This document shows, one piece after another, positions 702 through 1,388 of a stretch of DNA of 8,368 nucleotides. The translations under genes and the position numbers were made by a program. The notes under the pieces were generated by a model. That model saw only the letters and a list, made by a program, of their open reading frames with translations, searched no databases and was not told the origin of the DNA. Numbering within the stretch: position 1 is the first letter of the stretch; the number at the start of each line of letters is the position of its first letter. The stretch lies in the IMG/VR virus record IMGVR_UViG_2609460059_000004; one strand, given 5' to 3'. This DNA comes from a virus. Its lineage: Duplodnaviria; Heunggongvirae; Uroviricota; Caudoviricetes.

Positions 702-1388
702 ATGACCCCAATAAAAATATTTATGACTATTGCTGATTTCAAACGGCCTAAATTGGAGCTCCCAAACGGGGCAAACAAACTACTACTGCACTCTTGCTGT
801 GCTCCATGTTCCGGTGAAGTGATGGAGGCGCTTCAGGCCTCGGGAATCGACTATACCATCTTTTTCTACAACCCGAACATTCATCCTCAGAAAGAGTATT
901 TAATTCGTAAGGATGAGAATATTCGCTTTGCTGAACAACACGGCGTGCCATTTATTGATGCTGATTACGACACAGACAACTGGTTTGAACGTGCCAAAGG
1001 AATGGAATGGGAGCCCGAGAGGGGGATCCGTTGTACCATGTGTTTTGACATGCGTTTTGAGCGGACAGCGCTGTACGCTGCTGAAAATGGTTTCAGTGTG
1101 ATCAGCAGTTCACTGGGCATTTCACGCTGGAAAAATATGCAGCAGGTTAACGACTGTGGGCGGCGAGCCGTCGCGCATTATCCGGGCATGGTGTACTGGG
1201 ATTATAACTGGCGCAAGCAGGGCGGCTCGTCCCGCATGATTGAAATCAGCAAGCGCGAAAAATTCTATCAGCAGGAATATTGTGGCTGTGTGTATTCTCT
1301 GCGCGATACCAATCTACACCGCAAATCTCAGGGACGCCCTCTTATCAAAATTGGTCAACTCCACTACGGTAAAGAAGAGAAGGAGTGA
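702..1388 (+). CDS. queH: QueH-type epoxyqueuosine reductase (DUF208 family)
   Basis: 228-aa ORF with the N-terminal HSCCAPCS motif, a later [13 protein letters not shown] and EYCGC, the cysteine pattern I associate with QueH/DUF208. Alternative in-frame ATG at 723; no strong SD at either start. Confidence 0.8.

Follow-up and report, generated by a model that had tools for sequence, protein, structure and literature searches.

Prophage-borne queH, a cobalamin-independent counterpart of queG, in a cargo slot of lambdoid prophages of Escherichia coli

The pathway to queuosine (Q) has been fully elucidated in Escherichia coli, with tgt and queA making the epoxyqueuosine (oQ)-tRNA on which the last step acts (PMC5372724). 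Two enzymes are known for that step. QueG catalyses the same reaction as QueH, in the same cell (PMC4646009, PMC5175355), but has an unrelated fold and needs cobalamin, a dependence stated in these two sources where they cite Frey 1988. QueH (DUF208, PF02677, COG1636) is represented by the T. maritima structures PDB 7LC5, 7LC7 and 9DEU, and is presented as a non-orthologous replacement able to stand in for QueG in the passage of PMC5372724 that cites Zallot 2017. S. aureus has the pair of QueG and QueH, which the authors of that work read as a hedge on cofactor availability (PMC13443448).

Phage-borne queuosine-pathway genes have been described in another setting. The phage 7-deazaguanine clusters (FolE, QueC, QueD and QueE with DpdA; Hutinet et al. 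2019) make preQ0-derived DNA modifications, and they do so without QueA, QueG or QueH; the same survey of viral 7-deazaguanine genes reported no homologs of these three enzymes among the viruses analysed (PMC6884629). The locus described here is alike in that a queuosine-pathway gene is carried by a phage, but differs in that only the last, tRNA-specific step is present, without DpdA. A second point of comparison is given by lambdoid morons, the lysogenic-conversion cargo of the nin/Q region. As with morons, queH is a discrete foreign insert at a fixed slot in mosaic prophages; its function likewise has nothing to do with phage growth, and it has its own candidate promoter. Its boundaries are defined (673–1392), and its carriers include prophages of the Rac and DicB types as well as phage HannyBb. 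Unlike morons, it has no terminator that we could find, and the cargo is a tRNA-modification enzyme rather than a virulence or exclusion factor.

The window, by which we mean the whole 8,368-nucleotide stretch of viral DNA that was analysed (IMG/VR record IMGVR_UViG_2609460059_000004), contains a gene of this family. Its coding sequence and motifs are listed below, with residues numbered from the upstream ATG at 702.

723..1388, + strand: queH coding sequence, 221 aa, placed by the ORF call, the Pfam and PDB matches, the homolog alignment and the PGAP start
789..809, + strand: HSCCAPC motif, residues 30–36, with C32, C33 and C36
1032..1043, + strand: CTMC (CxxC) motif, residues 111–114, with C111 and C114
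1281..1289, + strand: CGC motif, residues 194–196, with C194 and C196

The open reading frame on the + strand extends from 702 to 1388 and would encode 228 aa from the upstream in-frame ATG. Translation probably begins further on, at an in-frame ATG at 723, because the N-termini of homologs align there and PGAP starts the identical protein WP_021554705.1 (221 aa) at that position.

The first-pass annotation had read the gene as a QueH-type epoxyqueuosine reductase and had proposed an HMM search against DUF208/QueH as a check. The search returned a full-length family match far above the cut-off (Pfam PF02677, 220.6 bits against 23.5, E = 1.9e-65; profile positions 1–174 of 175, residues 27–201), and T. 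maritima QueH was matched over nearly the same stretch (PDB 7lc5_A, E = 5.2e-22; query residues 27–203 against 4–178 of the 192 residues of the chain). Together with the cysteines described below, these matches bear the reading out. RefSeq WP_021554705.1, to which the encoded protein has 100% identity, bears the name QueH. An AlphaFold model (AF2, 28 homologs) reached moderate confidence overall (pLDDT 69.7, pTM 0.71), with low values around the metal-binding loops. Searching the PDB with this model in Foldseek, we found T. maritima QueH in all of the top five places (E = 1.4e-9 to 7e-9, target-normalised TM 0.73–0.79), while the runners-up, TtuA-type enzymes (tRNA thiolases), were ~10^4-fold weaker. 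The two QueH proteins have in common the adenine-nucleotide-alpha-hydrolase-like fold and the cysteine set CC..C, CxxC and CGC; they differ in that the enzyme of the window is carried by a prophage and is known here from its sequence and a model. NCBIfam holds no model that matches the protein, though PGAP names it. We regard its identity as QueH as close to certain. Neither the enzyme nor its annotation is new: RefSeq names the E. coli copies 'epoxyqueuosine reductase QueH', and this is a standard member of the family.

In PHROGs the protein falls into phrog_3217, labelled 'unknown function', with a profile of 188 positions that begins at residue 41 (M41), past the CCAPC motif. With this profile start and label, phage annotation pipelines truncate QueH or leave it unnamed, as in phage HannyBb, where it appears as a 'hypothetical protein'.

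To assess residue conservation, we aligned the window protein and T. maritima QueH with representatives drawn from a library that had been clustered at 50% identity. The counts given here rest on the 60 aligned sequences that reach across both end motifs. The columns of C32, C33 and C36 hold cysteine in 58, 59 and 56 of the 60, respectively. C111 and C114 are invariant (60/60), and the neighbouring E106, R110 and R118 are conserved. HSCCAPC and CxxC had already been reported as intact, which we confirm; the CGC motif at residues 194–196, absent from the first-pass annotation, adds to them, aligning with the CGC of T. maritima QueH and holding cysteine at C194 and C196 in 53 and 54 of the 60 representatives. 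The window protein therefore has all seven family cysteines (C32, C33, C36, C111, C114, C194 and C196) as well as E106, R110 and R118. These residues are reportedly assigned as ligands of the Fe–S or iron centre by Li et al. 2021. One position differs between the two enzymes compared: after CCAP, T. maritima QueH has Asp13 (the residue mutated in PDB 9DCO, D13N), whereas the window protein has a cysteine. We considered a change of the active site at this position and rejected it, since cysteine is the family norm (56/60) and T. maritima is the outlier.

The unit that carries the gene is delimited by DNA homology, and its leader contains a conserved element.

673..1392, + strand: queH cassette of ~720 bp, consisting of a ~50-nt leader, the coding sequence and 4 nt, with limits set by DNA homology
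680..688, + strand: extended −10-like promoter element TGCTACACT, ~35 nt 5' of the ATG at 723, found by comparative alignment

Homology to the chromosomal queH of Scandinavium spans 673–1392, and homology to the most divergent prophage allele, a Rac allele, spans 674–1392. In each comparison it stops 4 nt past the stop codon, and the boundaries, like the −10-like motif at 680–688, are common to the chromosomal queH of Scandinavium, Kluyvera and Enterobacter. From these common limits we take the mobile unit to be a ~720-bp cassette that moves as one together with its 50-nt leader. Within the leader, TGCTACA(C/A)T recurs without change in all eight queH loci compared, four from prophages and four chromosomal, the other upstream DNA being divergent. 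Its strict form, TGNTANANT, is present between −43 and −55 in 13 of 77 species loci, compared with 0.7% of background windows. The motif emerged only from comparative alignment; a scan for sigma-70 −35/−10 consensus elements gave nothing on the + strand up- or downstream of queH and did not flag TGCTACACT. We consider TGCTACA(C/A)T a candidate extended −10 promoter element that was presumably inherited along with queH. No −35 element and no Shine–Dalgarno sequence were recognisable upstream of the gene, and a scan of 400–2200 revealed no terminator-like site, leaving queH without a terminator of its own; on these grounds, queH could owe most of its transcription to the early-right operon of the phage.

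Searches for regulatory signals upstream of queH gave no further candidates. Rfam returned no riboswitch or other RNA element (preQ1, cobalamin) there, either at the gathering score or at E ≤ 1. A Fur-box search, prompted by the fec/TonB neighbours of plasmid-borne queH, gave a best match of 12/19 upstream of the window gene, inside the range of shuffled sequences. The base composition of queH (GC 0.44–0.50) is like that of its surroundings and is uninformative on foreign origin.

The genes on either side place the cassette in the early-right region of a lambdoid phage.

122..538, + strand: DUF977 / Ren-like gene (Pfam DUF977, 103.6 bits; PHROG 142, Ren-like)
1456..1782, + strand: hok/sok type I toxin–antitoxin (Rfam sok, 119.4 bits at 1456–1632; 45-aa Hok-family ORF at 1645–1782)

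The order in the window is that of a lambdoid early-right and late region: DUF977, queH, hok/sok, a Phd-like ORF with Doc, DUF1367 (NinB-like), YbcO (DUF1364) and DUF1133 (Q-like antiterminator), followed by tRNA-Thr, tRNA-Gly, holin, lysozyme, Rz and trkG. The prophage association claimed in the first-pass annotation is thus confirmed, both by these genes and by the Rac-type prophage of E. coli 042. A DUF977 gene lies upstream of queH in all 82 phage and prophage loci; hok lies downstream in 60 of the 82 viral and prophage loci, and the late regions vary among loci.

The slot past queH differs in content. In the window, 1991–2674 holds a 59-aa ORF (phrog_2208, possibly a Phd-like antitoxin) followed by a Doc/Fic toxin (TIGR01550, 120.6 bits), a pair present in 1 of the 82 queH loci and absent in E. 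coli 042. The O157:H7 prophage has a Dcm methyltransferase and an NgoMIV-type restriction enzyme at this place, and strain WL164 has a DUF1971 gene. In view of these differing contents, the slot after queH is a cargo hot spot. Just past hok, at 1791–1872, Rfam also gave a weak match to the Hfq-binding sRNA isrK, whose 25.7 bits (E = 0.004) fall short of the gathering score of 50.

Several lambdoid prophage backbones carry queH at this one slot, right after the DUF977 gene. In E. coli 042 and APEC O1 the locus is an intact Rac-type prophage, which in 042 is integrated at ttcA and has intR, xisR, ralR, recET, kilR and sieB. The same slot is occupied by queH in a DicB-type prophage at tRNA-Ser/mtfA (ST131), in the O157:H7 prophage and in a second Rac variant. 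The cryptic Rac prophage of K-12 MG1655 (NC_000913.3, 1419000–1428500) reads ydaV-ydaW-rzpR(pseudogene)-rzoR-trkG, without the entire block of DUF977, queH, hok, nin, Q, tRNA and holin/lysozyme genes. Loss of this block would explain the QueG-only state of the reference strain.

Among cultured phages, Escherichia phage HannyBb has a queH whose product is 95.6% identical in amino acids and is annotated as a hypothetical protein; it is the one clear case among 50,697 phage records. Two records named 'Acinetobacter phage MD-2021a' (CAKLQH020000001.1 and CAKLQF020000001.1, 330–380 kb) encode a protein 78% identical to QueH, annotated as 'putative prophage protein'. Most other matches in 'phage' records are short, unannotated 'Bacteriophage sp.' faecal contigs that may be bacterial DNA. 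In IMGVR_UViG_651053022_000007, the genes near queH include tRNA-Glu, tRNA-Ala and tRNA-Ile(GAU), as is usual for an rRNA operon, and that contig probably includes host chromosome.

The ends of the window call for a separate remark. Bases 1–100 are 100% identical to the core gene yqjD in minus-strand reading, and bases 8248–8368 are 100% identical to a DMT-family transporter gene; in strain SK1144 these two genes lie 1.3 Mb apart. Only 95–8253 is colinear with the prophage, the right side being cut within trkG. The window is therefore chimeric at both ends, through an assembly chimera or an artefact of window making, and queH is unaffected.

The gene had further been described as lying next to phage tRNA genes, with a functional link implied. 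The description of position is loose: tRNA-Thr(UGU) and tRNA-Gly(UCC) are at 4967–5120, 3.6 kb downstream of queH, beyond hok/sok, Phd/Doc, three nin-type genes and Q. The functional link does not hold up. Neither of the two tRNAs receives queuosine, and across 42 queH-bearing loci the tRNAs, in their usual position after Q, were Thr, Gly, Met/Ile(CAU), Lys, Arg(UCG) and Arg(UCU); 15 of these loci had no tRNA in range, and none of the 42 had a GUN-anticodon tRNA (Asp, Asn, His, Tyr). With no Q-substrate tRNA in 42 loci, we rejected a functional tie between queH and the phage tRNA genes. Their association is just a common position on lambdoid prophages.

Within the species, queH is widespread as an accessory gene. 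By megablast it is present in 995 of 5,426 complete E. coli genomes (18%), at 1,018 places; 984 of the 995 retain at least 80% of the query region, and among the matches listed every copy is annotated as an intact CDS. By contrast, queG is a core gene, found in 5,426 of 5,426 complete genomes, so that queH, the mobile one of the two, is always a second copy; E. coli 042, for example, holds both. That queH duplicates the function of host QueG is in line with these counts, and the universal queG is consistent with a supply of oQ-tRNA in E. coli hosts.

Beyond Escherichia, a scan of one genome per species identified the closest relatives in Scandinavium (92% identity), Kluyvera (91%), Enterobacter (89–90%) and Symbiopectobacterium (87%), with many other Proteobacteria at 75–86%. 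Among the 80 species loci kept, phage neighbours were found in E. albertii only. Ordinary chromosomal genes surround queH in Providencia, Erwinia, Photorhabdus, Scandinavium and Enterobacter, and these non-phage relatives are 79–92% identical to the window protein. A survey of whether homologs sit in prophages, as had been suggested for this gene, gave a divided answer: they do in E. coli and E. albertii, and phage HannyBb carries the gene; in the five genera just named its setting is chromosomal, and it is on plasmids as well. Klebsiella accounts for 16 of the 20 plasmid records that contain the whole 720-bp cassette, E. coli for 2, and Salmonella and Enterobacter for 1 each; 15 of the 20 are predicted to be conjugative. 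Both plasmids that we inspected, from K. pneumoniae (L175) and S. enterica (L176), are IncF. On these two, the cassette lies next to IS3 or IS481 elements and to genes for iron uptake (TonB fragments, fecC and fecE).

Prophage queH alleles that have diverged to dS 0.1–0.4 show dN/dS of 0.02–0.05; in one comparison of prophage alleles, 41 synonymous differences stood against 7 nonsynonymous ones. The gene is therefore under strong purifying selection.

Taken together, family membership, intact ligand residues, purifying selection, carriage on prophages and plasmids, universal queG, the limits of the cassette and the −10-like motif form the observed basis for a proposed role. QueH is predicted to act in E. 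coli as an iron–sulfur, cobalamin-independent epoxyqueuosine reductase, which would turn oQ into Q at tRNA position 34 (tRNA-Asp, -Asn, -His and -Tyr). The ~720-bp cassette appears to derive from an enterobacterial chromosomal queH that was taken up, along with its promoter-proximal leader, by a lineage of lambdoid phages. It now occupies a variable cargo position, following the DUF977 gene of the replication module and preceding the nin/Q region, in several prophage backbones of E. coli and E. albertii, and IncF plasmids have it too. We think it likely that queH supplies the lysogen with a working enzyme for cobalamin-independent completion of queuosine, that it would be expressed at least partly from its own promoter, and that it is kept for the benefit of the host.

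As to the nature of that benefit, every E. coli has QueG, QueG needs cobalamin, and E. coli must import cobalamin; for these reasons the selected effect is most likely B12-independent completion of Q in the lysogen. queH would then be a lysogenic-conversion or fitness gene rather than an infection-specific phage function, and it would have to be expressed from a repressed prophage. Finding the same cassette and leader in ordinary chromosomes of other Enterobacteriaceae and on conjugative IncF plasmids, we favour a gain for the host cell over a phage-specific function. For the part of the proposal that concerns host benefit and B12 sparing, we lean slightly in favour. We know of no phenotype that tells oQ from Q. 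As a counterpoint, deletion of queG left growth unchanged in one B12-related study (PMC11841063).

The main alternative, in line with the first-pass annotation, is that queH serves the phage itself, being transcribed with the pR operon at infection or induction and keeping tRNA-Asp, -Asn, -His and -Tyr Q-modified for phage decoding. The position of the gene fits this: queH lies on the + strand inside the rightward early region, past the replication genes and ahead of Q, with no terminator before or after it, and the free-living phage HannyBb carries it. We nevertheless consider the idea unlikely. An identical cassette with its leader exists away from any phage, in chromosomes and on conjugative plasmids, queH is kept under strong constraint in Rac-type prophages, and the gene is almost absent from cultured phage genomes, where HannyBb is the only clear example. 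The use of NAU and NAC codons in the phage genes of the window is also unremarkable (NAU fraction 0.58, from a small sample) and uninformative. If neither phage nor host gained anything, queH would be a neutral passenger of a recombination-prone cargo slot, as might be suspected of a gene that is redundant with universal queG, occurs in only 18% of genomes and was lost from K-12 without obvious harm. Such neutrality is contradicted by the dN/dS values across alleles, and it fits poorly with the near-complete retention of the region in the genomes that have it, with intact CDS among the copies listed, and with independent spread onto plasmids and several prophage types; we hold it to be quite improbable.

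Two further readings assign the enzyme to conflict or to DNA. Conversion of oQ to Q might let tRNAs escape anticodon nucleases or tRNA-directed toxins, or might make them targets of these. Support is only circumstantial and comes from the conflict genes in the downstream slot, hok/sok and Phd/Doc here and the NgoMIV-type restriction–modification pair in the O157:H7 prophage. PADLOC, however, had no model matching QueH, DUF977, Hok, the Phd-like ORF, Doc or the ORF at 2859–3110, and on this result we rejected membership of queH in a defence system. Host QueG makes the same product whenever B12 is available, and chromosomal queH homologs sit among housekeeping genes. No nuclease is known to us that would tell oQ and Q apart, and we judge a counter-defence role very improbable. 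It is barely credible that QueH acts on 7-deazaguanine bases in DNA, modifying the phage genome rather than tRNA. Some phages do put 7-deazaguanines into their own DNA, but the survey that described them found no QueA, QueG or QueH in DNA-modifying phages (PMC6884629), and the window protein is 79–92% identical to housekeeping tRNA enzymes. Moreover, neither a DpdA/TGT-like transglycosylase nor preQ0-synthesis genes are present in the window or in the 40-kb prophage region of E. coli 042, which has 56 annotated features, and we rejected membership of queH in a DNA-modification cluster on this ground.

Returning to a cobalamin-independent function for the host, one can go further and regard queH as a horizontally spreading 'B12-independence' module, carried by prophages and IncF plasmids and freeing the last queuosine step from cobalamin import. 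We offer this broader version tentatively and consider it rather unlikely. If true, it would be of consequence where B12 is scarce or competed for, or in BtuB-less cells that escape colicins and BtuB-dependent phages, and the conservation of queH would be the first population-genetic evidence that the step from oQ to Q affects fitness in nature.

A literature search found no paper on prophage- or plasmid-borne queH in Enterobacteriaceae or on its coexistence with universal queG. What the locus fills is a modest gap in description, and it is not a new kind of system. E. coli has been treated as a QueG-only organism because the Rac prophage of K-12 lost the block that bears queH. In 18% of complete E. 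coli genomes there is a second, presumably cobalamin-independent route to queuosine on mobile elements, under strong purifying selection, a context that has been under-appreciated. If the cassette is expressed in lysogens, it would provide a simple genetic handle on the physiological relevance of epoxyqueuosine versus queuosine.
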